Of a stretch of 38,781 nt of DNA, positions 1-38,781 are shown one piece after another. A model generated the notes under the pieces. It saw only the letters and a list, made by a program, of their open reading frames with translations, was not told the DNA's origin and made no database searches. Position 1 is the stretch's first letter; every line of letters begins with the position of its first letter. The position numbers and the translations under genes were made by a program. Origin of the DNA: Burkholderiales bacterium (lineage in GTDB: Bacteria; Vulcanimicrobiota; Xenobia; Xenobiales; Xenobiaceae); NCBI GenBank assembly GCA_012799975.1, contig JAAZKF010000111.1, forward strand, positions 1-38,781, in the 5' to 3' direction.

Positions 1-170
1 ACCCCACCCACACCAGGGTGTGGGTGGGAGGGGCCCGTCTGCGTCGTCAGGCGCACCTCTGCGGTGCTCACGTAGTTTCCAACTACGCTCCGCTCCTCAG
101 AACGCACGCCTTCCTGGCATCCAGACTCGCCTCGATGGCCTCGGTTCTCACGCCAGGCGGCGGATTCAGG
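1..170 (+). mobile_element. MITE copy 1 (long class, left end cut by window edge)
   Basis: Near-identical to 4472-4649 and to the reverse complement of 12316-12530. Ends in CACGCCAGGCGGCGGATTCAGG at 170. Carries the CCCACCCACACC-AG-GGTGTGGGTGGG hairpin (3-28). Confidence 0.9.
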
Positions 171-3070: not shown

Positions 3071-4342
3071 TCAGTCCTCGGGCTTATGGGGGTCCACTAC
3101 ATGCGAGAACTCTTCGATGAAGCGCTCGGGGGTGATGCAACAGACGGCTGCCATCTGCCGCAGGCGATCCCGCGACTCGAAATCCTGGCGGGTCAAGCGG
3201 ATCATGTATTCCCGGGCGATCCGATAGGACAGCGAGCTGCAGTCTACGAAGCGGACCTTGGTGCGGCGGGTCTGCGGGCTGATCAAGTCGGCAAACCGCA
3301 ACGGCACGATCCGCTCACCCTGCACCGTGATCACTGCATTGGTGCCACCGTTCTCCAGGAACTCGACGGCCCCGTAGCCCAGGTTGCGGGTATAGTCGAT
3401 ATCGAAGGCGGTCGGGTCCACGCAACGCAACTCATACCCCAACTCCTGGTTGACGATCCGCAGTTTGATCCCGAATTCCTCCAGGCGACGGCGGATGGCG
3501 AACTTCAGGATATCTGAAAAGTTCAGTTCTCCCAGATGCAGATGCCCGTATTCGTCGCGTTCGAGGACCTCGAACTTGGAGAGGAACTTCTCGAGCTCTA
3601 CGGGATCGATCCTCTCCATGAAGCCTTCGGCGACGATGGCCACCCCGTGCTGGCGGCCCTCAGCCAGGCGTTTGATGATCGAACCGACGATCGTGTCGAC
3701 GATCAGGCTCAGGCCGACCTTCCCCGTGAACTCTTCCGGAATCAGGGTCAGGGTGGCCCCGGCCGATTTGCCGATCCCCAGGGCCAGGTGCCCGGCCTTG
3801 CGCCCCATGGCGACCACCACGAACCAACGCCCGGTGACCCGGGCATCCTGATAGTAGGTGGACACGATGCGGCTGCCCTCGGCGCGGGCCGTCTCGAAGC
3901 CGAAGGTGGGGATGCCAGCAGGCAGGGGCAGGTCGTTGTCGATGGTCTTGGGGATGTGGGCAAACTTCAGATCGTGCCCCATATGCCGGGAGTATTCGGC
4001 GATCCGGATGGCCGAATAGGCGGTGTCGTCGCCCCCCAGGGTAACCAGGTGGGTGATCTCCAACTCCCGCAAGGTCTCGACCGTATTGCGCAGCAGGCGC
4101 TCATCCCTGGTCGGGTTGGCTCGGGAGGTCCGCAGCAGGCTACCTCCGTGGAGGTGGATCCGACTGATCTTGGGGATGCTGAGGAACTCGATCTTCTTCT
4201 CGCCGTTCATCAGGTGCTGGTAGCCATCATAGATCCCGATCACCGAGTGGCCACGCTTGATGGCCTCGATCGTGACCGAACTGATGACCGAGTTGGTGCC
4301 CGGGGCAGGTCCTCCCCCGATGAGGATTCCATACTTGCGCAC
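3071..4342 (-). CDS. pfp: Pyrophosphate-dependent phosphofructokinase (diphosphate--fructose-6-phosphate 1-phosphotransferase)
   Basis: GGGPAPG, GGDD (the Asp indicates PPi preference), PKTIDND, MGRKAGHLA and LGYELR motifs. AGAGG SD-like sequence upstream. Confidence 0.9.
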   Translation of the reverse strand: MRKYGILIGGGPAPGTNSVISSVTIEAIKRGHSVIGIYDGYQHLMNGEKKIEFLSIPKISRIHLHGGSLLRTSRANPTRDERLLRNTVETLRELEITHLVTLGGDDTAYSAIRIAEYSRHMGHDLKFAHIPKTIDNDLPLPAGIPTFGFETARAEGSRIVSTYYQDARVTGRWFVVVAMGRKAGHLALGIGKSAGATLTLIPEEFTGKVGLSLIVDTIVGSIIKRLAEGRQHGVAIVAEGFMERIDPVELEKFLSKFEVLERDEYGHLHLGELNFSDILKFAIRRRLEEFGIKLRIVNQELGYELRCVDPTAFDIDYTRNLGYGAVEFLENGGTNAVITVQGERIVPLRFADLISPQTRRTKVRFVDCSSLSYRIAREYMIRLTRQDFESRDRLRQMAAVCCITPERFIEEFSHVVDPHKPED

Positions 4343-4471
4343 CGGATCACCTCTCTTCCTGGCCCGACGCCCCGGAACTCAGCAGAGGCGGGGTAACCTG
4401 TGAAAAAAAAGCGCTTCGCCTCGACAAGAAGGATCCCCTGCGCGGGAGGGGCCTTGAATTCGCCACCTAGC

Positions 4472-4649
4472 CCTGAATCCGCCGCCTACCGTGGCATTCG
4501 GCCGTCGAGGCGGGCCCGTCTGCGTCGTCAGGCGCACCTCTGCGGTGCTCACGTAGTTCCCAACTACGCTCCGCTCCTCGATGCACGCCTTCCTGGCATC
4601 CAGACCCGCCTCGATGGCCTCGGTTCTCACGCCAGGCGGCGGATTCAGG
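4472..4649 (+). mobile_element. MITE copy 2 (178 bp, medium class)
   Basis: 16-bp perfect TIRs CCTGAATCCGCCGCCT / AGGCGGCGGATTCAGG. Flanks are CTAGC (4467-4471) and CTGGC (4650-4654), a 4/5 direct repeat. Lies between divergent genes. Confidence 0.92.
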
Positions 4650-4769
4650 CTGGCCGCCCGACGTGGACAACTCGGCCCGGGTCTGCTACGATTCCGAACC
4701 GTGAGTGACTCGGAAGGATATAATCCCGGAACCGCAGCCTACAAATACGAGCAGTTGCAGACCCGCAGC

Positions 4770-5693
4770 ATGATCCGCTCGCTGCTGAGTCTTTTCGGCA
4801 GCCGACCGGACCCCACCCTGCTCTCCTTCGACCAGGTCCAGGCCCTGCTCCGCCCCGCCGCAGGGGTGTCGAGGGGAACCCGGATGATCCCCATCTCCCA
4901 TATCGTAGGCAGTGTGGGACGCTACCGGGACTTCGACCGGGCCTTCCTCCCCCTCAACCCGGCCTCTGAAGAACGCTGGAAGCGAATCGACGTGGCCATG
5001 CATGGTTCCAGCGGCCTTCCCCCCATCGACGTCTACCTGGTGGGCGAGGTCTATTTCGTTCGCGACGGGAACCACCGGGTCTCGGTGGCCAGGGCCAATG
5101 GCATGGAAGAGATCGAGGCCCGGGTGACCGAGATTCCGACCCGGGTGCCGTTGACCGCCGACCTGGACGTCGACGACCTGATCCGCAAAACGGAATACGC
5201 CCGATTCCAGGAAGAGACCGACCTGGACAAGTCCCGCCCCCAGGCCAACATCGACCTGACCGAGCCTGGTCGCTACGAACAGCTCCTCGAGCACATCGGA
5301 GTGCACCGCTACTATCTGGGCCTGGAGCGAGGTCATGAGGTCTCCATGCCCGAGGCCGCGCAGAGCTGGTATGACCACGTGTATCTCCCGGTGATCGAAT
5401 CGGTCCGCCAGAGCCGGGTCCTCGAAGAGTTCCCCCACCGGAGCGAGGCGGACCTCTACCTCTGGGTAGCCTGGCATCGCGAACGTCTCAAGAAGAAATA
5501 CGGGGTCCTGCCCCCGGACCAGGAGGTCGCCGCCGGTCTGGCGGAGCGTTTCAGCGAGCGCCCCCTGGCCCGCTTCCTGAAGATGCTGCGACGGATCCTC
5601 CAGGCTGCCGTGGCGGCGGCCCACGAGTCCCCCGCCCCTCCCGAGGCCGACAGACCATCGGACCCTGGCGAGGACCCGCCCGACCCGTCGTGA
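4770..5693 (+). CDS. ParB/sulfiredoxin-like N-terminal domain protein (DUF4032-associated type)
   Basis: IVGSVGRYRDFDRAFLP, LPPIDVY, YFVRDGNHRVSVA (ParB/Srx-like DGxHR) and ADLYLW. The ORF-track start at 4581 is inside the MITE; MIRSLL at 4770 is the more likely start. Confidence 0.75.
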   Translation: MIRSLLSLFGSRPDPTLLSFDQVQALLRPAAGVSRGTRMIPISHIVGSVGRYRDFDRAFLPLNPASEERWKRIDVAMHGSSGLPPIDVYLVGEVYFVRDGNHRVSVARANGMEEIEARVTEIPTRVPLTADLDVDDLIRKTEYARFQEETDLDKSRPQANIDLTEPGRYEQLLEHIGVHRYYLGLERGHEVSMPEAAQSWYDHVYLPVIESVRQSRVLEEFPHRSEADLYLWVAWHRERLKKKYGVLPPDQEVAAGLAERFSERPLARFLKMLRRILQAAVAAAHESPAPPEADRPSDPGEDPPDPS

Positions 5694-6976
5694 GCTCTCC
5701 GCTACGCCTGGCCATGACGGCCGCCCACGGGGGTTATGGTTCCGAACAGGTCCCCGTGGGTGGGGGGGCCGCCATCTGCGAGCGCCTGTGCAGAACCTGG
5801 GGAGCCCGTCAGGATGTGGAACTCACCCTCCTGGTGCCGGGCCCCTCGGTCCCGCCGGGTCTGCGCTCGCTCCGCGTCGATGTCCTGGAGGGACGGACTC
5901 CCTCCTCGCTCGGGACCCTGAGTTACGCCCGTTTCTGCCGACGCTTCGAGAAGGTCCTGACCCGAACGCTGATCCGCCTGGCCCCCGACGCGGTCCTGGT
6001 CCACGACATCGCCGAGGCCCCGGACTTCCAGGCCCTGCACCGTCAAGGCATCCCTTGCGTGCCGATCCTGCACGTCGACGTCGTGGACTTCTTCTGCCGG
6101 ATGTATCTGGGCGGATGGGTGCGCCCCCAGGCGGCTGAAGCCTTCATGCGGCGGCTGCGCCCATGGCCAATCCTCCCTGACCTCTTGCGTCTGGTCTTCG
6201 ACAAGCAGGCCGCAGCGGCCCTCTGTTGCCCCCACCTGGTGGTGCCCTCCCGGGGGATGGCCGAAATCCTGGAAAAGACCTATCCCGAGATGGCACCTGG
6301 CCAGGTCGTCGTAGTTCCCTGGGGAGCCCCCGATGAAGAGCCCTCCGAGGCCGCCCTCCAGGCAGCGCGCAGCCGGTGGTCCCGGCGACTGGAGATCCCC
6401 GCCGAGGCCCCCGTGATCCTGACCTTGTCCCGTCTCTCACCCGAAAAGGGCCAGGACCTGCTGCTGGAAGCCCTGGCCTGGGGCGAGCAGCAAGGAGAAA
6501 TCCCGCCAGGCCTGACCCTGGTCGTCTGTGGCCAGGTCGCCTTCATGCAGGGGCCTGCCTTCCTGGAACGACTCCACCGGTTGGCGCGGAACCTGAGCCA
6601 GGTCCGGGTCATCTTCCCCGGCCACCTGGGTGGAGCCGAGAAACGGATAGCCCTGGAGAGGGCCGACCTCTTCGTCTCCGCCAGTCGCCACGAGAGCTAC
6701 GGCCTGACCACGATGGAGGCCCTGGCGGCGGGAACCCCCGTCCTGGCCCTGGAGACCCCCGGAGCCCGCCAAGCCCTGAGCCCGGATTGCGGGCGCATCC
6801 TGGCGCGAGGGGGAGACCTCCGGGCCAGGCTCTGGGACGAGATCCGGGACATGCTGGCAGACCACGGGCGCCTGGAGGCCATGGGCAGGGCAGCCCGGGA
6901 GCGCGCTGCCGCTCATCCCTTCAGCCTGGCCGCCGAGCGGCTACGCCTGCTCCTAGCCGGACTGAAAGATTCCTGA
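5690..6976 (+). CDS. Glycosyltransferase family 4
   Basis: SRLSPEKGQDLLL and ESYGLTTMEALAAGTPV (EX7E) motifs. GTGA overlap with the upstream gene. Confidence 0.9.
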   Translation: MSSPLRLAMTAAHGGYGSEQVPVGGGAAICERLCRTWGARQDVELTLLVPGPSVPPGLRSLRVDVLEGRTPSSLGTLSYARFCRRFEKVLTRTLIRLAPDAVLVHDIAEAPDFQALHRQGIPCVPILHVDVVDFFCRMYLGGWVRPQAAEAFMRRLRPWPILPDLLRLVFDKQAAAALCCPHLVVPSRGMAEILEKTYPEMAPGQVVVVPWGAPDEEPSEAALQAARSRWSRRLEIPAEAPVILTLSRLSPEKGQDLLLEALAWGEQQGEIPPGLTLVVCGQVAFMQGPAFLERLHRLARNLSQVRVIFPGHLGGAEKRIALERADLFVSASRHESYGLTTMEALAAGTPVLALETPGARQALSPDCGRILARGGDLRARLWDEIRDMLADHGRLEAMGRAARERAAAHPFSLAAERLRLLLAGLKDS

Positions 6977-6984
6977 ACCCCGCC

Positions 6985-8433
6985 TCAGGGGATCTGGACC
7001 GCGGGCCCCAGGAACTCGTCCACTTCCAGGAGCCGGACCGGCCCCAAACCCAGGGCCTCCAACTGAGGAGTCACCACCCGAGCATCCCCCACCACCACCA
7101 AGGCCATTTCTTCCAGGGCCAGGGTTCGGGTGGCCGCGCGCGCGGTGGAAGCCGCATCCACTTCCAGGAGGCGAGCGACGTACTCCGAGAAGTAGGCGTC
7201 CGGCAACCCGTACAGTTGCATCTCGAGAACCTTGGCAGCCAGATCCGTGCAGGTCTCAAACTCGCCGGGGAAGCTGTAGGCAGCATAGCTGCGCGCCTTC
7301 AGCAGCTCGGGCTCGGGGATGGGCTCAAGGATGGCCTCCAACTCGGAGAGGATCTCCCCCAGGGCCGCCCCCGTCTTGTCGGCCTGCACCGAGGTGCTCA
7401 CCAGGAAGGGCCCCGGGGCCCGGCGCATGGCGAAGCTGGAGCTGGCACCGTAGGTGAAGCCGTTGCGCTCGCGCAGATTCTGGTTGAGCCGCGAGGTGAA
7501 GGAACCGCCCAGGACGGTGTTGAGAATCTGCAAGGGGAAGAAATCCGGGGTGACCCGTTCCACACCGACCTTCCCGACGCGCAGGACGGATTGGGGAGAA
7601 TCGGGTCTGTCGACCAGGAAGATCCCCCGCCCCCGCGCGGGAATCGCACGGGTCGGAGCGTCGGACAAAGCCGGTCCCGAGGCCTTCCAGGAGCCGAAGC
7701 GGGAACCCAGGAGCTTCAGGGCCTGCTCGGGTTCCACGTCTCCCGTCACGACAAACGAGGCCAGAGCCGGATGGCACAACTGACGGTGGAAGTCCAGCAG
7801 ATCCTGGCGGGTCAGCCCGGCGAACTGGGCGGCCGTGCCGGAAGACGAGGTCCCATAGCGATGGTGCTCTCCATAGACCGTCCGGAGGAAGGCGGCATTG
7901 GCCAGCGAGGTCGGGTCCATCCGCATCTGCAGGAAGCTGGTCAGGAAGCGGGCCTGCAGACGGTCGACTTCGGCCTGGGCGAAGCGCGGACGCAGGACCA
8001 TGTCGGCCATCAGGTCCAAAGCCGGTTCCAGGCGCGCCGTGGGTACCCCCAAGGCGACCACGGTTCCGTCAAAACTGCAGTTGGCCGAGAGGTCGGCTCC
8101 CAACATGTCCACCGCCTCGGCGAACTCCAGGGAATCGCGCGCCCCGGCTCCTTCATCCAGGCAGGCCGTGGTGAAAGAGGCCAGACCGGCCTTGCCTGCC
8201 GGATCCTGCATGGCCCCGGCCCGGAAGAGCAGATTGACCGAGACCAGGGGCACCTTCTTCCGTTGGACGAACCACACGGGGATCCCATTGGGCAACTGCC
8301 GCTTCACGATCGGCTGCATCTTCAGGCCGGGTGGCAGGCCCGGCCGGGGAGGCGTCGTCCGATCGGGGATCCCGGCCTCGAGCGGGAGCGCGGCCAACAA
8401 GGCCAGCAAAAGTATGAGAAGAGCCCTCTTCAT
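6985..8433 (-). CDS. M16B peptidase non-catalytic subunit (signal peptide)
   Basis: LPNG start, no HXXEH, GGSFTSRLNQNLRERNGFTY (R/Y motif). Overlaps the partner's stop codon. Confidence 0.88.
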   Translation of the reverse strand: MKRALLILLLALLAALPLEAGIPDRTTPPRPGLPPGLKMQPIVKRQLPNGIPVWFVQRKKVPLVSVNLLFRAGAMQDPAGKAGLASFTTACLDEGAGARDSLEFAEAVDMLGADLSANCSFDGTVVALGVPTARLEPALDLMADMVLRPRFAQAEVDRLQARFLTSFLQMRMDPTSLANAAFLRTVYGEHHRYGTSSSGTAAQFAGLTRQDLLDFHRQLCHPALASFVVTGDVEPEQALKLLGSRFGSWKASGPALSDAPTRAIPARGRGIFLVDRPDSPQSVLRVGKVGVERVTPDFFPLQILNTVLGGSFTSRLNQNLRERNGFTYGASSSFAMRRAPGPFLVSTSVQADKTGAALGEILSELEAILEPIPEPELLKARSYAAYSFPGEFETCTDLAAKVLEMQLYGLPDAYFSEYVARLLEVDAASTARAATRTLALEEMALVVVGDARVVTPQLEALGLGPVRLLEVDEFLGPAVQIP

Positions 8434-9776
8434 CGGGTGGCCTCCTGTTCCGGAATCACGTAGAGTTCCACCCGGCGGTCCGCCGGCAGGAAGCGGCGCA
8501 CCACTGAACGGAGGTCTTCGGGAGAGATGGCCCGATAGCGGGCCAGGTCCTCCTCGAAGTAGTCGGGGTTCCCCGTATACATGTAGTAGGCGTTCAACTG
8601 ATCTGCTTTGGAGGAGGCGCGCTCGATGGCCTGGAGATGGGCGGCTTCCAGACCATTCAGGGCCCGGTCTATCTCCTGGCGTTTCGGGGGTTCCTGGTGC
8701 AGGAGGGCGAGTTCCTCGTCGATGACCCGCTGGACCTCGTCCAGGGTATGCCCGGGCCGGGGGATGAACTGGATCACGAAGAGGGAGCCCAAACGTTGGC
8801 TGAGCTGGGAAGCCGAGACCTGCTGGGCGATCTGCAGTTCATGGACCAGTCGCCGGTATAGGCGCGAGTTCTTGCTCCCACACAGGACCGACGCCACCAG
8901 GTCCATCTCGGCGTCTCCGGGCGTCAGGATGGCCGGCGTATGCCAGACCAGGAGCCCCAAGGGAAGCTCGACCCGGTCGGTCAGGGTCTTTCGCCGCACT
9001 TCCTCGAGCCGGACGGGGGGGGCACTTACCGGTGCTACCGGAGCTCCGGATTGGACATCCGAAAACCACTTCTCCACCAGGGCCCGGGTCCGGACCGGGT
9101 CGATATCCCCCGCCACCACCAGACTGGCGTTGTTGGGTACATAGTAGGTGCGGAAGAAGTCGGTGACATCCTTGAAACCGGCGGCCGAGATATCCTCCAG
9201 CGATCCGATTACCGGCCAACTGTAGGGGTGGGACTCCGGATAGAGCAGCCCCGGCAACTCCAGCCAGACCTTGCCGTAGGGTCGGTTGAGGTAGCTCTGG
9301 CGCATCTCGTTCTTGACCACGTCCCGCTGGCCATCGACTATATCAGGCGAGACGGACTTCAACAGGTGGCCCATCCGGTCGGATTCCAGGAAGAGCGCGA
9401 GCTCCAGGGCGTTGGAGGGAAGCGAGATATAGTAGTTCGTCCGGTCCTGGGAGGTCGAGGCATTGTTGTTGCCCCCGACTCCCTCCAGAAGCGTATCGAA
9501 CTCGCCCTCCCGGACGTGCCCCGAGCCCTCGAACATCAGATGCTCGAAGAGATGGGCGAAGCCGGTCCTACCGGGCTTCTCGTTGGCCGACCCGACCAGG
9601 TACCACAGGTTGGTGTGAACCACCGGCACCGTGTGGTCCTCGTGCAGGATCACGTTCAGACCATTGGGCAAGGTGAATTGAATATAGTCGACCGAGAGCC
9701 TCTCCTGGGGTTCAGCCAGGACGGGCCCGACCAGTAGCCAGAGTACGGCCAGGACGGACAGGATCCTGCGAGTCAT
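8430..9776 (-). CDS. M16B zinc peptidase catalytic subunit (signal peptide)
   Basis: GFAHLFEHLMF (HXXEH), NNASTSQDRTNY and LESDRM motifs. GGAGG SD before MTRRILSV at 9776. Confidence 0.92.
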   Translation of the reverse strand: MTRRILSVLAVLWLLVGPVLAEPQERLSVDYIQFTLPNGLNVILHEDHTVPVVHTNLWYLVGSANEKPGRTGFAHLFEHLMFEGSGHVREGEFDTLLEGVGGNNNASTSQDRTNYYISLPSNALELALFLESDRMGHLLKSVSPDIVDGQRDVVKNEMRQSYLNRPYGKVWLELPGLLYPESHPYSWPVIGSLEDISAAGFKDVTDFFRTYYVPNNASLVVAGDIDPVRTRALVEKWFSDVQSGAPVAPVSAPPVRLEEVRRKTLTDRVELPLGLLVWHTPAILTPGDAEMDLVASVLCGSKNSRLYRRLVHELQIAQQVSASQLSQRLGSLFVIQFIPRPGHTLDEVQRVIDEELALLHQEPPKRQEIDRALNGLEAAHLQAIERASSKADQLNAYYMYTGNPDYFEEDLARYRAISPEDLRSVVRRFLPADRRVELYVIPEQEATR

Positions 9777-9984
9777 GCGCATCCTCCACAGACGAATCAG
9801 GCCTTGTTCGCCGCCTCCCGGGCGACTCCCCCACTCCGGGCTGCTTCGAAGAGCCGGGTTCCCGCCGCTCCGGCGACAACAAGGGAGTGTGGACTGGCAG
9901 CCCCTGCCCAGATGTGTTAACCTGCGGCGAGGGCCGCCGGTTCTACCCAGGGTTGGTCCACATCTTCCCGGGGAGGTCGCCGGC

Positions 9985-10902
9985 TTGAAACGCATTCTGG
10001 AGATTTCCGAACTCAGGGAGTTCTTCGGCTCCAATCCTCCCCAGGTTTCCTTCGAATTCTTCCCCCCCAAGACCGCCGAAGCCGAGGCCCGGCTCTGGAA
10101 GACCATCGTCCACCTCGAGCCACTGGCTCCGACCTTCGTCTCGGTCACCTATGGTGCGGGCGGCTCCACCCGGGAGCGGACCCACGGCACGGTTCGCCGA
10201 ATCCTGAACCAGACCGGGTTGACCCCGGCGGCACACCTGACTTGCGTGGGGGCTTCGCGCCAGGAGGTGGACCAGGTGGCCCGGGGCTACTGGGAGGCTG
10301 GAGTCCGCCACCTGGTAGCCCTCCGAGGGGATCCCCCGGCCGAGACGGGTGTGTATGTGCCACATCCCGAAGGTTACGCCCACACCAGCGACCTGGTCCG
10401 AGGGCTCAAGAACCTGGCAGACTTCGAGATATCGGTGGCCACCTTCCCCGAGGGGCACCCCGAGACCGTTTCGATCGACCTGGAGCTGGAGAATCTCAAG
10501 CGCAAGATCGACGCCGGAGCGACCCGGGCCATCACCCAGTATTTCTTCGACACCGACCTCTACTTCCGATTCCTCGACCGGGCCTCGGCGGCCGGCATCG
10601 ACATCCCGATCGTCCCGGGAATCCTGCCGGTCACCAGCGTAGCCAACCTGATCCGCTTCAGTCAGACCTGCGGTGCCACGGTACCCGAATGGCTCAACCG
10701 GCTCTTCGAGGGCCTGGACGACATCCCCCAAATCCGCAACCTGCTGGCCATGCAGGTGGCTGCCAGCCAGTGCCTGCTGCTGCGGCGCGCCGGGGTCGAG
10801 CACTTCCACTTCTTCACGATGAACCGAGCCGAGTTGACCTGGGCCCTGTGCCGGGTGCTGGGGCTGCAGACCTCCCCCATCCTCGACCAGGCCCTGGCTT
10901 GA
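9985..10902 (+). CDS. metF: 5,10-methylenetetrahydrofolate reductase
   Basis: SFEFFPPK, SVTYGAGGS, AAHLTCV, ALRGDPP, KIDAGA and ITQYFF motifs. GGAGG at 9972-9976 before TTG at 9985. Confidence 0.95.
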   Translation: MKRILEISELREFFGSNPPQVSFEFFPPKTAEAEARLWKTIVHLEPLAPTFVSVTYGAGGSTRERTHGTVRRILNQTGLTPAAHLTCVGASRQEVDQVARGYWEAGVRHLVALRGDPPAETGVYVPHPEGYAHTSDLVRGLKNLADFEISVATFPEGHPETVSIDLELENLKRKIDAGATRAITQYFFDTDLYFRFLDRASAAGIDIPIVPGILPVTSVANLIRFSQTCGATVPEWLNRLFEGLDDIPQIRNLLAMQVAASQCLLLRRAGVEHFHFFTMNRAELTWALCRVLGLQTSPILDQALA

Positions 10903-10918
10903 GGCTCCGCCCGGGACA

Positions 10919-10961
10919 CAATAAGGACGGCCCCGATACTTGACCGGGGCCGTCCTTATTG
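10919..10961. terminator. 17-bp perfect inverted repeat between convergent metF and ferredoxin genes; probable bidirectional terminator
   Basis: CAATAAGGACGGCCCCG / CGGGGCCGTCCTTATTG with a 9-nt loop. Confidence 0.75.
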
Positions 10962-11000
10962 GGGTATCGAGGCCGGTTTGAAGGCTCCGGCCCGAAGAGC

Positions 11001-11240
11001 CTACTTGTAGAAGGCCGCGTTCTTGGCCGCGAAGTGCTTCATTTCCTCGGGGAGGTCCTCCTCGGGGAAGATGGCTTCCACGGGGCAAACAGAGGTGCAG
11101 GCTCCGCAGTCGATGCACTCGTCGGGGTTGATGAAATACTGATCGGACTCCTCGGTGCCATGAATGGCTTCCACGGGGCAGACCTCGGTGCAGGCCGTGT
11201 CCTTGACTCCGATGCAGGGCTCAGCGATGACGTGGGGCAT
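11001..11240 (-). CDS. Dicluster (7Fe, FdxA-type) ferredoxin
   Basis: MPHVIAEPCIGVKDTACTEVCPVEAIH...CIDCGACTSVCPVEAIF, with C-X7-C-X3-CP plus CxxCxxCxxxCP. GGAGG SD upstream. Confidence 0.92.
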   Translation of the reverse strand: MPHVIAEPCIGVKDTACTEVCPVEAIHGTEESDQYFINPDECIDCGACTSVCPVEAIFPEEDLPEEMKHFAAKNAAFYK

Positions 11241-11378
11241 GGGATCCTCCTCTATGGGCGGAACAAATTGAATTTTTCCAGGATTTCGCCCTTCTACCAA
11301 AGCAGGCGACTCCAGGTCCAATATGCGCAGGATGCCATATCCCAGAATTTCTTGCAGTGACCCCTGTCCGGATCAACC

Positions 11379-12266
11379 TCACAGGTTGGCCAGGGCCTCG
11401 GGATCCAGCAGGACCAGTTGACGGCCCTGCCCCTGGATCAAGCCCTCGCGGCGGAAACGCATCAAAGCACGGCTCAAGCTTTCGCGAGCCCCACCCAGAA
11501 GGGAGGCCAGCTCGGCGGTGGACATGGTCAGCTCGACCCGGATCGCTCCGGATTCCAGCTCCGTGCCCGAACGAGCCAATTCCACCAGGTGCCGAGCCAG
11601 GCGCTGTTCCAGGCTGAGCAAGGCCATCTCCTCGATCCGAGCCTCCAGGGCCTCCACGCGCTGACTGAAGGAGGATAGCAGGTTCCAGGAGAGTTCGGGG
11701 GAGCGGGCCAGAAGCTCGCGCAGACGGCCCTGGGGGAGCACCAGCAAGGTGCTGCCTTCCAGACAGGTGGCATTCGAAGAATACTGGCCGTCGGGTCTGA
11801 AAAGCGAGGTCTCGCCCAGGGTCTGGCACGGCGTGACCACGGCCAGGGTCTGTTCGCGCCCACCCTCGCTGACCCGATAGACGCGAACCCTTCCCTTCAC
11901 CAGGACCGGGAGACCCAGGCAGCGGTCCCCCGGCGAGAAGAGGCTCTGGCCCGGCAGGAATCCCTTGAAGCGAGCGCTGGCCGCCAACTCGATCAGAACC
12001 TGCTCGGGAAGGTTCCTAAAGAGCGGGACCTGACGAAGCCATCCGCGGACCCGGGACCAGCGCTGGGAATCGACCATGGTGGGCGCCTGAGTAGTCGGAT
12101 CCCCCAACTCCCGTCGAATCCGCTCCAGATCGACCTCGCTGAACGAGCGCCAGCCACGTCGATCCCGCGCGACCCCACTGATGCGACCTTCGCGGAACCA
12201 GCGCAACAAAGTGTTCCGGCTGACGCCCAACCGACCCGCTGCCTCACTGCAGGAGTAGACTCGCAT
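11379..12266 (-). CDS. Crp/Fnr-family regulator with an extra N-terminal MerR/excisionase-type HTH
   Basis: N-terminus SEAAGRLGVSRNTLLRWFREGRI...RDRRGWRSF. cNMP barrel VPLF...KGRVRVY...GREQTL...LGE. C-terminal HTH ELASLLGGARESLSRAL. Confidence 0.85.
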   Translation of the reverse strand: MRVYSCSEAAGRLGVSRNTLLRWFREGRISGVARDRRGWRSFSEVDLERIRRELGDPTTQAPTMVDSQRWSRVRGWLRQVPLFRNLPEQVLIELAASARFKGFLPGQSLFSPGDRCLGLPVLVKGRVRVYRVSEGGREQTLAVVTPCQTLGETSLFRPDGQYSSNATCLEGSTLLVLPQGRLRELLARSPELSWNLLSSFSQRVEALEARIEEMALLSLEQRLARHLVELARSGTELESGAIRVELTMSTAELASLLGGARESLSRALMRFRREGLIQGQGRQLVLLDPEALANL

Positions 12267-12315
12267 GCCGCAAGTATATCCAGATATATCCAAGCGAGCA
12301 AGAGGTAGATCTCAT

Positions 12316-12530
12316 CCTGAATCCGCTGCCTGGCGTGAGAAGCGAGGCCATCGAGGCGGGTCTGGATGCCAGGAAGGCGTGCATCGAGGATGCGGAGCGT
12401 AGTTGGAAACCACGTGAGCACCGCAGAGGTGCGCCTGACGACGCAGGCGGGTGCCTCCCACCCACACCCTGGTGTGGGTGGGGTCTCAACGCCTCGACGG
12501 CCGAAGGCCACGACAGGCGGCGGATTCAGG
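12316..12530 (-). mobile_element. MITE copy 3 (215 bp, long class)
   Basis: TIRs with one mismatch. Perfect 5-bp TSD CTCAT at 12311-12315 and 12531-12535. Contains the extra 12-bp-stem hairpin (12457-12482). Confidence 0.95.
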
Positions 12531-12572
12531 CTCATGCGCTCCCCGCGCAGTCAGGAACCTACCCCATGATGA

Positions 12573-13484
12573 CTAGAAGAAGCGCCGGGCGCCCAGGTAG
12601 CGGGCCGAAAAGTATTCCTCTTCCAGGCTGCTGATCCGGACGAAGCCCACCGAGGAGGCGTGGATGAAGGCTCCCCGCCCCAGATAGACGCCGACATGCG
12701 AAGCTCCCGGAGCATAGGTCTCGAAAAAGACCAGATCGCCGGGTTGTTCCTGCCCGCGGGGAACCGAACGCCCCGCCATGAACTGCACGTCCGCAGTTCT
12801 GGGAAGCTGCACTCCGTGAAGGCCATACAGGTATTGGACGTAGCCCGAGCAATCGAAGCCCGACGGATCCTCCCCGCCCCAGACGTAGGGGACCCCCAGG
12901 TAGCGCCGTGCCGAGGTCAGAAGTGCGCGGATCGGACGCCCGCGACGAGAGGCCAGGCTGCTCCGTCCGGGGGTTGACCCTTTTCCCCCGGACACCTCGG
13001 GTTCCTCGGGCTCCTCGATTACCGGGGGCACATAGGCGGGGATCTCGATCATGCGGCCGTCGCTGCCGACCATGCGGTTGCGGAAGGGCGGAGTGCCGTG
13101 AACGGAGAGGACCCCTTGGGAACTGCGGACCCTGCCCTCGCCTGCAGAGGAGGCGGAGCGCAGCGGAGCCCGAGAGGTCGAAGACTTCGAGGCGTCCTCC
13201 TGGCCCGCGCCGCGCCCGGCGGTGGGTGTCTGGAGCGCGCCCTGCAAGCCTCGCCCGGGCGTCGGCAGGACCAGGATCATGCCTGGAACAAGCCCCTTGC
13301 CCTCCAGGATCTGCTTGGAGTTGCACTCCAAAACCGTGAAGGGGTCCAGCCCATGGGCTGCAGCGACCGACTCGACGGTGTCACCGGAGCGCACCTGATA
13401 GTAATTGTAGTCCGAGTGCGCCAGGGCTGGGTGCGCCAGAGCGCAACACAGCAGGAAGGCGCAGAACAAGGCGATTCTGGGCAT
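12573..13484 (-). CDS. LysM + NlpC/P60 cell-wall endopeptidase (signal peptide)
   Basis: YQVRSGDTVESVA (LysM), then YLGVPYVWGG...GFDCSG...LPRTA...PGDLVFF...HVGVY...FIHAS. Start at MPRIAL; the ORF-track start at 13571 is inside the MITE. Confidence 0.92.
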   Translation of the reverse strand: MPRIALFCAFLLCCALAHPALAHSDYNYYQVRSGDTVESVAAAHGLDPFTVLECNSKQILEGKGLVPGMILVLPTPGRGLQGALQTPTAGRGAGQEDASKSSTSRAPLRSASSAGEGRVRSSQGVLSVHGTPPFRNRMVGSDGRMIEIPAYVPPVIEEPEEPEVSGGKGSTPGRSSLASRRGRPIRALLTSARRYLGVPYVWGGEDPSGFDCSGYVQYLYGLHGVQLPRTADVQFMAGRSVPRGQEQPGDLVFFETYAPGASHVGVYLGRGAFIHASSVGFVRISSLEEEYFSARYLGARRFF

Positions 13485-13506
13485 GCCAACAAGACCTTCC
13501 GCGGGG

Positions 13507-13590
13507 CCTGAATCCGCCGCCTGGCGTGGCATTCGGCTGTCGATCCGGGCCTGGATGGCCTCGGTTCTCACGCCAGGCGGCGGATTCAGG
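13507..13590 (+). mobile_element. MITE copy 4 (84 bp, minimal class)
   Basis: 22-bp perfect TIR CCTGAATCCGCCGCCTGGCGTG / CACGCCAGGCGGCGGATTCAGG. Perfect TSD CGGGG at 13502-13506 and 13591-13595. Confidence 0.93.
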
Positions 13591-13649
13591 CGGGGTCGAA
13601 GGGCATTCGCCGGGCCGCAGGGGAATCCCCCCTCCCGATTTCAGCCTCC

Positions 13650-15248
13650 TCAGCGCCGCCCCAGCAGGCGGCGACGACGCAGGCGCCCCGGGCCCCAATG
13701 AGCAGTTGGAGCAGCGTGCGCCCGGGGCGCGTCGGCCGCCTCCTCGATCGCCTCACGGGCCAGCATCTCGTTGATCGAGCGCGCTGCTCGGCGCCCCTCG
13801 CCCATCGCCAGGATCACCGTCGCCGCTCCCAAGACGATATCACCTCCGGCGAAGACCCGCTCCAGGCTGGTGGACCCGGTCTCGGGATCGACCACGATAT
13901 TCCCTCGGGAGTTGACCTCCAGCCCCGGGGTCGTCGAGGTCAGGAGCGGATTGGAGTTGTTGCCGATGGCCACCAGGACGGCGTCGGCCGGAAGCTCGTA
14001 GGTGTCTCCTTCGATGGGGAGGGGGCGCCGACGCCCTGAAGAGTCGGGCTCACCCAGGGCATAGCGCTGAACGGTGACCGCTCGGACCCGGCCCGACCCA
14101 TCCCCCAGGACTTCCAGGGCATTCTCCAGGAAGCGGATTTCGATCCCTTCCTCCAGGGCGTGTTCGACCTCCTCGGCCCGCGCCGGCATCTCGGCCCGAC
14201 TGCGGCGATACAGGACGATTACTTCCTCGGCACCCAGGCGACGCGCCATGCGGCATGCATCCATGGCCACGTTGCCGCCGCCCAGGACCACGGTCCGCCG
14301 ACTGACGAACATCGGCGTGTCGCTACGCCCCGGATGGATTCCTCCCATCATGTTGGCCCGGGTCAGATACTCGTTGGCCGAGAAGACGCCCACCAGATCC
14401 TCGCCCGGCATCCCCGTGAAGACCGGAAGCCCGGCCCCGCTGCCGATGAAGATGGCATCAAAGCCATCCTTGTCCATCAGGTCCAGGAGCTTGCGGGTGC
14501 GCCCGACCACGAAGTTGGTCCGGAACTCGACGCCCATCCGACGCAGAAGGTCGATCTCGGCGTCCACGACCTCCTTGGGCAGGCGGAACTCCGGGATCCC
14601 ATAGCGCAGGACGCCGCCGAGCTTGTGGAAGGCCTCGAAGACGGTGACCTGGTGGCCCTCCCGACGACAATCCGCGGCCACCACCAGGCCGGCGGGCCCG
14701 GAGCCGATCACTGCGACCTTGCGTCCCGAGGGAGATTTTACCCGAGGCACGGGGGCCTGAGCCTGGTTTCGTTGCCAGTCGGCCAGGAAGCGCTCCACCT
14801 TGCCGATGGCCACCGCCCGACCCACATCCTTGAGGCTCTTGCCTACGGCGCATTCCTGCTGGCACTGCCGCTCCTGGGGGCAGACCCGGCCGCAGATCGC
14901 CGGCAGGAGACTGGTGCGCTTGATCACCTCGAGGGCCTCCGAGAAGTCACCCTCGGCCGTCAGCCGCAGGAACTCGGGGATGTCGATGGCCACCGGGCAC
15001 CCCTTGACGCAGGCCGGCTTCTTGCACTGGATGCAGCGCATGCTCTCCAAGACGGCCTGGGCAGGGGTCAGGGGCTTCTCCACCTCCTCCTGCAAGCGTG
15101 AGCGCTCGCCGGGGTCCAACACGGGAGGAGTCTGCACGGGAATCGCCAGGCGATCCTTCATCTTCAGGATTCCCTGGCTGCGCAGTTCCTCCAGCAGGCG
15201 GCGCGCGTCGGCTTCCAACTTGTTGGGGTCCTCGACGTAACGGGGCAT
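13650..15248 (-). CDS. nfnB: NfnB/SudA-like (GltD-like) Fe-S flavoprotein, large subunit of NADH-dependent reduced ferredoxin:NADP+ oxidoreductase
   Basis: RCIQCKKPACVKGCPV, ICGRVCPQERQC, GSGPAG, GGGNVAMD and FAGGDIVLGAATVILAMGEG motifs. Adjacent to an NfnA-like gene; no glutamate synthase large subunit nearby. Confidence 0.85.
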   Translation of the reverse strand: MPRYVEDPNKLEADARRLLEELRSQGILKMKDRLAIPVQTPPVLDPGERSRLQEEVEKPLTPAQAVLESMRCIQCKKPACVKGCPVAIDIPEFLRLTAEGDFSEALEVIKRTSLLPAICGRVCPQERQCQQECAVGKSLKDVGRAVAIGKVERFLADWQRNQAQAPVPRVKSPSGRKVAVIGSGPAGLVVAADCRREGHQVTVFEAFHKLGGVLRYGIPEFRLPKEVVDAEIDLLRRMGVEFRTNFVVGRTRKLLDLMDKDGFDAIFIGSGAGLPVFTGMPGEDLVGVFSANEYLTRANMMGGIHPGRSDTPMFVSRRTVVLGGGNVAMDACRMARRLGAEEVIVLYRRSRAEMPARAEEVEHALEEGIEIRFLENALEVLGDGSGRVRAVTVQRYALGEPDSSGRRRPLPIEGDTYELPADAVLVAIGNNSNPLLTSTTPGLEVNSRGNIVVDPETGSTSLERVFAGGDIVLGAATVILAMGEGRRAARSINEMLAREAIEEAADAPRAHAAPTAHWGPGRLRRRRLLGRR

Positions 15249-18350: not shown

Positions 18351-18469
18351 GGCATATCCTCCCTTTCAAGAGACTCCAGGGCGGCGAATTCTGGATGGAT
18401 GGGCCGGGTTCCTGGATGTCTCGGGGACAAGAATAGCCTCCGCGATTTCATGATAGGATGGGTCTTGTC

Positions 18470-38648: not shown

Positions 38649-38781
38649 CCTGAAACCGCCGCCTGGCGTGAGAACCGAGGCCATCGAGGCGGGTCTGGAT
38701 GCCAGGAAGGCGTGCATCGAGGAGCGGAGCGTAGTTGGAAACTACGTGAGCACCGCAGAGGTGCGCCTGACGACGCAGACG
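38649..38781 (-). mobile_element. MITE copy 5 (cut by window edge)
   Basis: Starts CCTGAAACCGCCGCCTGGCGTG (one TIR mismatch) and continues as the reverse complement of the copy 1/2 core. Confidence 0.92.

Follow-up and report, generated by a model that had tools for sequence, protein, structure and literature searches.

A high-copy MITE family in a fragmented bacterial MAG, very probably mobilised by an IS1380-type transposase

The repeat described here is very probably (we put it at about 0.9) a MITE moved in trans by an IS1380-type DDE transposase, which would recognise termini that the two elements share and cut the target with a stagger of 5 bp. It has every feature of a MITE that we looked for, that is, small size, TIRs, target duplications, dispersed copies, empty sites and an autonomous partner.

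Copies in the window and across the genome

The window, that is, the whole stretch of 38,781 nt that was analysed (contig C340 of the assembly), contains five copies that can be aligned end to end, with 93-100% identity between copies. The terminus consists of 16 bases, CCTGAATCCGCCGCCT, and matches the window at 10 places with up to three mismatches, where 1.12 would be expected; none of 100 shuffles had as many. Exact matches lie at 155-170 (-), 4472-4487 (+), 4634-4649 (-), 12515-12530 (-), 13507-13522 (+) and 13575-13590 (-), and those at 12316-12331 (+) and 38649-38664 (+) carry one mismatch. The copies at 1-170, 4472-4649 and 13507-13590 are oriented one way (-) and those at 12316-12530 and 38649-38781 the opposite way (+).

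The complete copy at 4472-4649 is of the 178-bp class, has a 16-bp perfect TIR and lacks a 36-bp palindrome, which makes up the difference between the 216-bp and 178-bp forms; it is flanked by the imperfect 5-mers CTAGC (4467-4471) and CTGGC (4650-4654). At 12316-12530 there is a complete copy of the long class, 215 bp in length, with the exact duplication CTCAT (12311-12315, 12531-12535), and at 13507-13590 a complete 84-bp deletion derivative reduced to the two ends, with a TIR that is perfect over 22 bp and with CGGGG duplicated exactly on its flanks (13502-13506, 13591-13595). The copy at 1-170, with its terminus at 155-170, is of the long (216-bp) class and is cut by the contig start inside the internal palindrome; its 93-nt arm (1-93) is 96% complementary to 12392-12484. 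Of the copy at 38649-38781 only 133 bp precede the contig end, and this 133-nt arm is 98% complementary to 4517-4649. An earlier note on this DNA had listed the same five copies in both orientations, with the same flanking 5-mers, had placed both ends of the window inside copies and had seen neither a copy inside an intact gene nor an intact transposase in the window. Its description holds throughout: all five copies are intergenic, and the window contig has no match to an IS1380-type transposase.

A degenerate solo terminus with three mismatches adjoins the 4472 copy at 4453-4468 (+) and is probably the remnant of an older insertion; the stretch that contains it is absent in the congeners G003 and G001. 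Another match with three mismatches, at 18379-18394, is without a partner terminus and looks like chance.

The assembly comprises 3.65 Mb in 452 contigs (65% G+C, N50 12.4 kb), is ~96% complete by marker genes and has no contig under ~1.5 kb. Genome-wide, the terminus CCTGAATCCGCCGCCT was found 223 times exactly and 390 times with up to two mismatches. Facing pairs within 600 bp number 69; a further 252 termini are unpaired, of which 144 are directed outwards at a contig end no more than 300 bp away. A BLAST search with the 215-bp copy gave 227 merged loci, which add up to 31.3 kb or 0.86% of the assembly. Moreover, 126 of the 904 contig ends, about one in seven, lie inside a copy, indicating that the repeat breaks the assembly; it accounts for the poor assembly of this genome. 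The suggestions of the earlier note that there might be hundreds of copies per genome and that they interrupt contigs are thus borne out, the first by the 227 loci and 390 termini and the second by the contig ends.

Complete copies span 43-332 bp, below the ~600 bp that bounds a MITE, and contain no transposase gene. The main size classes are 63, 92, 178-180 and 214-218 bp. Mean pairwise identity is 92.4% (maximum 98.6%) among the 38 copies of the 216-bp class, 93.9% among the eight of the 178-bp class, 88.7% among the six of 84-92 bp and 76.2% among the eight of 58-64 bp. The classes are nested forms of one sequence, each derived from the next larger by internal deletion, and all have the terminus CCTGAATCCGCCGCCT. 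Judging by the 63-bp class, about 30 bp per end may be enough for mobilisation. The TIRs, again as in other MITEs, are perfect over 16-22 bp and extend imperfectly to ~45 bp, and the predicted fold is a single long hairpin, with z -7.5 for the 215-bp copy (as RNA) and z -7.1 for the 178-bp copy (as DNA). The internal palindrome was also considered as a separate repeat and rejected, all 95 of its genomic hairpins being inside MITE copies (94 by an automatic test, 1 by eye).

Target duplications, empty sites and distribution

Duplications were counted at the 67 complete copies whose flanks were long enough. Of these, 23 have an exact direct repeat of 5 bp, or 37 if one mismatch is allowed, while repeats of 2, 3, 4, 6, 7, 8 and 9 bp were found at 3, 0, 3, 2, 0, 0 and 0 of the 67, respectively. 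As a control, the left flank of one copy was compared with the right flank of another, which gave 5 exact matches in 4422 comparisons (0.11%). In the long class (n = 36), 15 duplications are exact, 7 have one mismatch and 5 are shifted by one base. No two of the 23 exact duplications have the same 5-mer, nor is there a clear consensus. It counts against our explanation that 30 of the 67 complete copies have no recognisable duplication, one mismatch allowed, and that identity within the long class averages only 92.4%.

Six insertion sites were compared with the congeners G001, G002 and G003 and with the sister-genus genome G005. The element is absent at all six wherever both flanks were found, and at three of them a clean single 5-mer stands in its place. 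At window position 13507, G003 (contig C312) and G002 (C72) read ...ccgCAGGGtcg..., where the study genome has CGGGG-element-CGGGG. The site C279:14547 has a single TTGTA in G001, G002 and G003. At C285:5006, G003 has a single CTGGA and the study genome TTGGA twice, with one changed base. At the remaining sites the intergenic DNA has diverged too far for a clean junction: the 4472 copy is absent from the orthologous intergenic region in G003 (C187), G001 (C304) and G005 (C338), the 12316 copy from that in G001 (C304), and the element is likewise absent at C338:18460.

The earlier note had read the window copies as independent transposition events with 5-bp duplications, and had proposed to tabulate the flanks genome-wide and to look for empty orthologous sites with a single 5-mer. 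Both searches support this reading, with 5-bp duplications exact at 23 of the 67 copies, every other length from 2 to 9 bp at three or fewer, a control close to zero, and a single 5-mer at three of the six sites. The outcome that the note named as fatal to it, copies lacking 5-bp duplications together with a lack of empty sites, did not occur.

The 215-bp copy matches all three other genomes of the genus and the one genome of the sister genus. It has no match in 14 other genomes of the family, and a single weak one among 22 genomes from other families of the order and one family of the class. Exact 15-base termini number 238 in the study genome, 25 in G001, 28 in G002, 24 in G003, 6 in G005 and 0 in G004; a reversed control pattern had 0 matches in all six genomes. 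With 238 termini against 24-28, the family has expanded roughly ten-fold in the study species compared with its congeners.

The unique DNA of the window was found in 20 runs from 16 studies, which are biogas and bioreactor metagenomes. In Logan contigs from four runs of four studies (window 3500-14500), the left junction of the 12316 copy is bridged in all four and the right junction in three by a 31-letter criterion, indicating that at least this insertion is common to the studies; at the other two copies the contigs enter the element by only 16-27 letters. Among the 15 joints listed of 33, none removes one of the three copies precisely and those listed join copies, a result that is silent on polymorphism given that Logan contigs drop rare variants. 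The summed depth in bins that bear copies is far above that in unique bins, although this depth is not a copy number. Insertion sites of this kind may serve as markers to separate related populations in bioreactor metagenomes.

The IS1380-family partner and the alternatives

Two congeners, G001 and G003, hold elements of 2.23–2.26 kb that have the ends of the MITE and one transposase gene each. In G001 (locus L013), the termini at 846-860 (exact) and 3089-3103 (two mismatches) delimit an element of 2258 bp with one 529-aa gene, and GGACC is found on both flanks if the right end is taken one base shorter. In G003 (locus L014), termini at 1-15 and 2218-2232 enclose one 520-aa gene. The proteins score 230.4 bits (G001) and 209.7 bits (G003) against the NCBIfam IS1380 model NF033539, whose cut-off is 180, and 97.4 and 89.7 bits against Pfam PF13701 (DDE_Tnp_1_4; cut-off 34.7). 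Both elements have CCTGAATCC... at both ends, and members of the IS1380 family are known for inverted-repeat ends that begin with CC. The assignment to this family in the earlier note is thus supported by elements with the same termini and transposases above the model's cut-off, and the transposase gene between the same TIRs that it recommended looking for exists in the congeners.

Across the aligned gene region the DNA of the two ISs is only 65.7% identical, yet their termini are the same. Either end of the IS agrees with the MITE over 15 bases, and the one that follows the transposase gene over 18; both termini of the MITE are of this downstream type. Outside these 15-18 terminal bases MITE and IS show no similarity, so that the MITE did not arise from the ISs observed here by simple internal deletion.

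IS1380-type proteins with 44-53% identity are present in MAGs assigned by their labels to Syntrophobacterales, Syntrophorhabdus, Myxococcales, Aminicenans and Vallitaleaceae. These relatives have a similar terminus ~200-290 bp past the gene, as with CCCAAATCCACCGCC in loci L039 and L042, which marks the end motif as a property of this branch of IS1380. On annotated plasmids, the transposase matches only genes named 'IS1380 family transposase', at ~25% identity (95 records, all below 60% identity). A closer relative was seen on a 3.4-kb contig (locus L037), whose transposase is 90% identical to that of G001.

We propose that the transposase of the ~2.25-kb IS would bind the termini it shares with the MITE, that the MITE would be inserted at a 5-bp staggered cut, and that repair of the cut would leave the 5-bp target duplication. 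The ends, the duplications, the empty sites, the copy number and the full-length partner in congeners are all observed; mobilisation in trans, whether present or past, and a working transposase in the study organism are what we infer.

In the study assembly, no gene passes the NCBIfam IS1380 model. The best match, at the end of contig C29, covers only 69 residues and contains a TAG stop, and the transposase residues matched in the assembly are only 1-35, 370-432 and 398-464 of 529, the last carrying the TAG stop. Ends of the G001-type IS are present 12 times (left) and 9 times (right) at ~95-97% identity, 18 of them at contig ends, while nothing in the assembly matches IS positions 536-1569 and 1827-1976. 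The most likely explanation for finding only ends and fragments is that the IS is a repeat that was collapsed or not binned. The pattern of its ends fits a multi-copy IS collapsed in a short-read bin, and is not proof of an intact copy.

Some of these traces have a structure of their own. At C29:13691-13996 (locus L001, 1402-1707), a 107-bp hybrid, composed of ~75 bp from the left end of the IS and a MITE end, directly adjoins the transposase fragment 398-464 with the TAG stop; hybrid and fragment together look like a rearranged IS copy. Three 5' remnants of the IS, at C60:5470-5905, C338:1-430 and C167:2247-2694, all end near IS position 517-535, and in C338 a second IS left end comes after the remnant; they may represent a further deletion derivative or a nested insertion. 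An intact gene for a 431-aa DDE transposase (C168:838-2133; locus L002, 646-1941) was considered as the partner and rejected, there being no MITE terminus in L002; it is of another DDE type, with a weak score of only 28.3 bits against NF033539.

The alternative that survives best also starts from an IS1380-type transposase, which would have spread the family once and left no working enzyme behind, with the copies now fixed in the study species. We regard this as possible, if unlikely. It would agree with an assembly that holds transposase fragments only, one of them with a stop codon, with the common truncation of the three 5' remnants, with the mean identity of the long class (92.4%) and with a 12316 insertion common to four studies. 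However, the 18 contig ends that stop in IS ends ~95-97% identical to the intact G001 element are what a collapsed multi-copy IS would give, some long-class copies are up to 98.6% identical, and the absence of an intact gene concerns a fragmented MAG from which all contigs below ~1.5 kb are missing.

A different transposase that also duplicates 5 bp, with a merely coincidental match to IS1380 ends, is highly improbable. Tn3-family elements make 5-bp duplications too, and the TIMEs derived from them resemble the present family in being non-autonomous; moreover, just 15-18 terminal bases tie the MITE to the IS. Tn3-type repeats, however, are ~38 bp long and start with a run of G, unlike the MITE ends, and PF01526 (Tn3 transposase) has 0 matches in the ~96% complete assembly, from which repeats are often missing. 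Besides, coincidence fits poorly with 15-base termini kept identical on two ISs as diverged as those of G001 and G003, with a reversed pattern that is absent from all six genomes, and with the hybrid in which an IS left end is joined to a MITE end.

That the copies are REP-like or fixed structural or regulatory palindromes, never spread by transposition, is scarcely credible: their hairpin potential and intergenic placement would suit such a role, but REP and BIME sequences are short palindromes without target duplications, and this reading is contradicted by the 5-bp duplications, the precise empty sites and an insertion inside a gene at C279, while no Rfam family matches any copy in 4300-13800 (E up to 1) and a promoter and terminator scan of 12200-13700 found no promoter-like or terminator-like site.

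Relation to known elements and genomic context

The family resembles the IS1380-family elements IS1247, ISEcp1 and ISPme1 in the single transposase gene of its partner, the CC ends and the 5-bp duplications. IS1247 is listed with 5-bp direct repeats and inverted repeats of 16/13 bp in Table 2 of PMC3281130; at 1672 bp it is shorter than the partner IS (2.23-2.26 kb). In contrast to the ISs of this family, the window element is a non-coding derivative and shares only the terminal 15-18 bases with the partner IS.

Among bacterial MITEs, MITEPye1 of Paracoccus yeei, associated with IS1182, is described in PMC11578231 as small, with TIRs, direct repeats and a long hairpin, without a transposase gene and with a preference for intergenic DNA. 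The features that these descriptions of MITEPye1 and of the MaeMITEs of Microcystis have in common with the present family are small size, TIRs, direct repeats, hairpin and intergenic preference. MITEPye1 is given there as having 1-3 copies per chromosome (PMC11578231), and the window MITE differs from it in being much denser and in having an IS1380 rather than an IS1182 partner. For the Microcystis MITEs, copy numbers are in the hundreds in Table 1 of PMC2779907, a table that assigns them no family. Within the literature text searched for IS1380 together with MITEs or non-autonomous elements (supplementary tables and ISfinder names lie outside this scope), no MITE is assigned to IS1380, and a text search with a 12-base terminus brought up only unrelated papers.

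What sets the family apart is chiefly its density and its expansion in one species; its mechanism is ordinary. A bolder interpretation, which we think doubtful, is that it is the first high-copy MITE family tied to IS1380, that 15-18 terminal bases suffice to move foreign DNA, and that a ten-fold burst in a single uncultured species from anaerobic bioreactors may have rewired expression. If so, copies 22-23 bp upstream of start codons and one lying in frame within a gene would be where such rewiring might have occurred. What is known of how MITEs work is unchanged by this family. The repeat supplies ends that nature itself has validated for an IS1380-type transposase. This family is of wider importance, since its ISEcp1-like members recognise ends loosely and in this way move resistance genes (PMC9330008).

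In the window, a phosphofructokinase gene (3071-4342, minus strand) has the 4472 copy ~130 bp upstream of it. Upstream of a gene for a Crp-like regulator (11379-12293, -), at a distance of 23 bp, is the 12316 copy, which is also downstream of an NlpC/P60 gene. The 13507 copy has this NlpC/P60 gene on one side, being just upstream of its probable ATG (as read from the sequence), and on the other a gene whose product has Fer4_20 (dihydropyrimidine-dehydrogenase domain II) and pyridine-nucleotide-disulphide oxidoreductase domains. The 38649 copy lies ~70 bp past the start of the longest open frame in its vicinity. The interval between the regulator and NlpC/P60 genes (window 12294-12572) corresponds to ~2 kb with a 560-aa open frame in G002 (C72:7751-9839) and to ~2 kb in G003 (C186:163-2130), a stretch that is missing in the study genome and in G001.

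The copies tend to keep out of coding DNA. Genome-wide, with the element removed in silico, a long open frame with high GC3 (third-position GC) covers 15 of 59 copy sites versus 1608 of 2000 random positions. The figure of 15 is an upper bound, because stop-to-stop frames extend upstream of the true start codons. One copy, of 214 bp, is found inside a gene at C279:14547-14760 (locus L050, 748-961), the G001 ortholog of which encodes a 492-aa protein of the GDE_C (amylo-alpha-1,6-glucosidase) family. Element and duplication together lengthen the sequence by 219 bp (73 codons), and no stop interrupts the minus-strand frame within the element, so that this may be an in-frame insertion rather than a broken gene.
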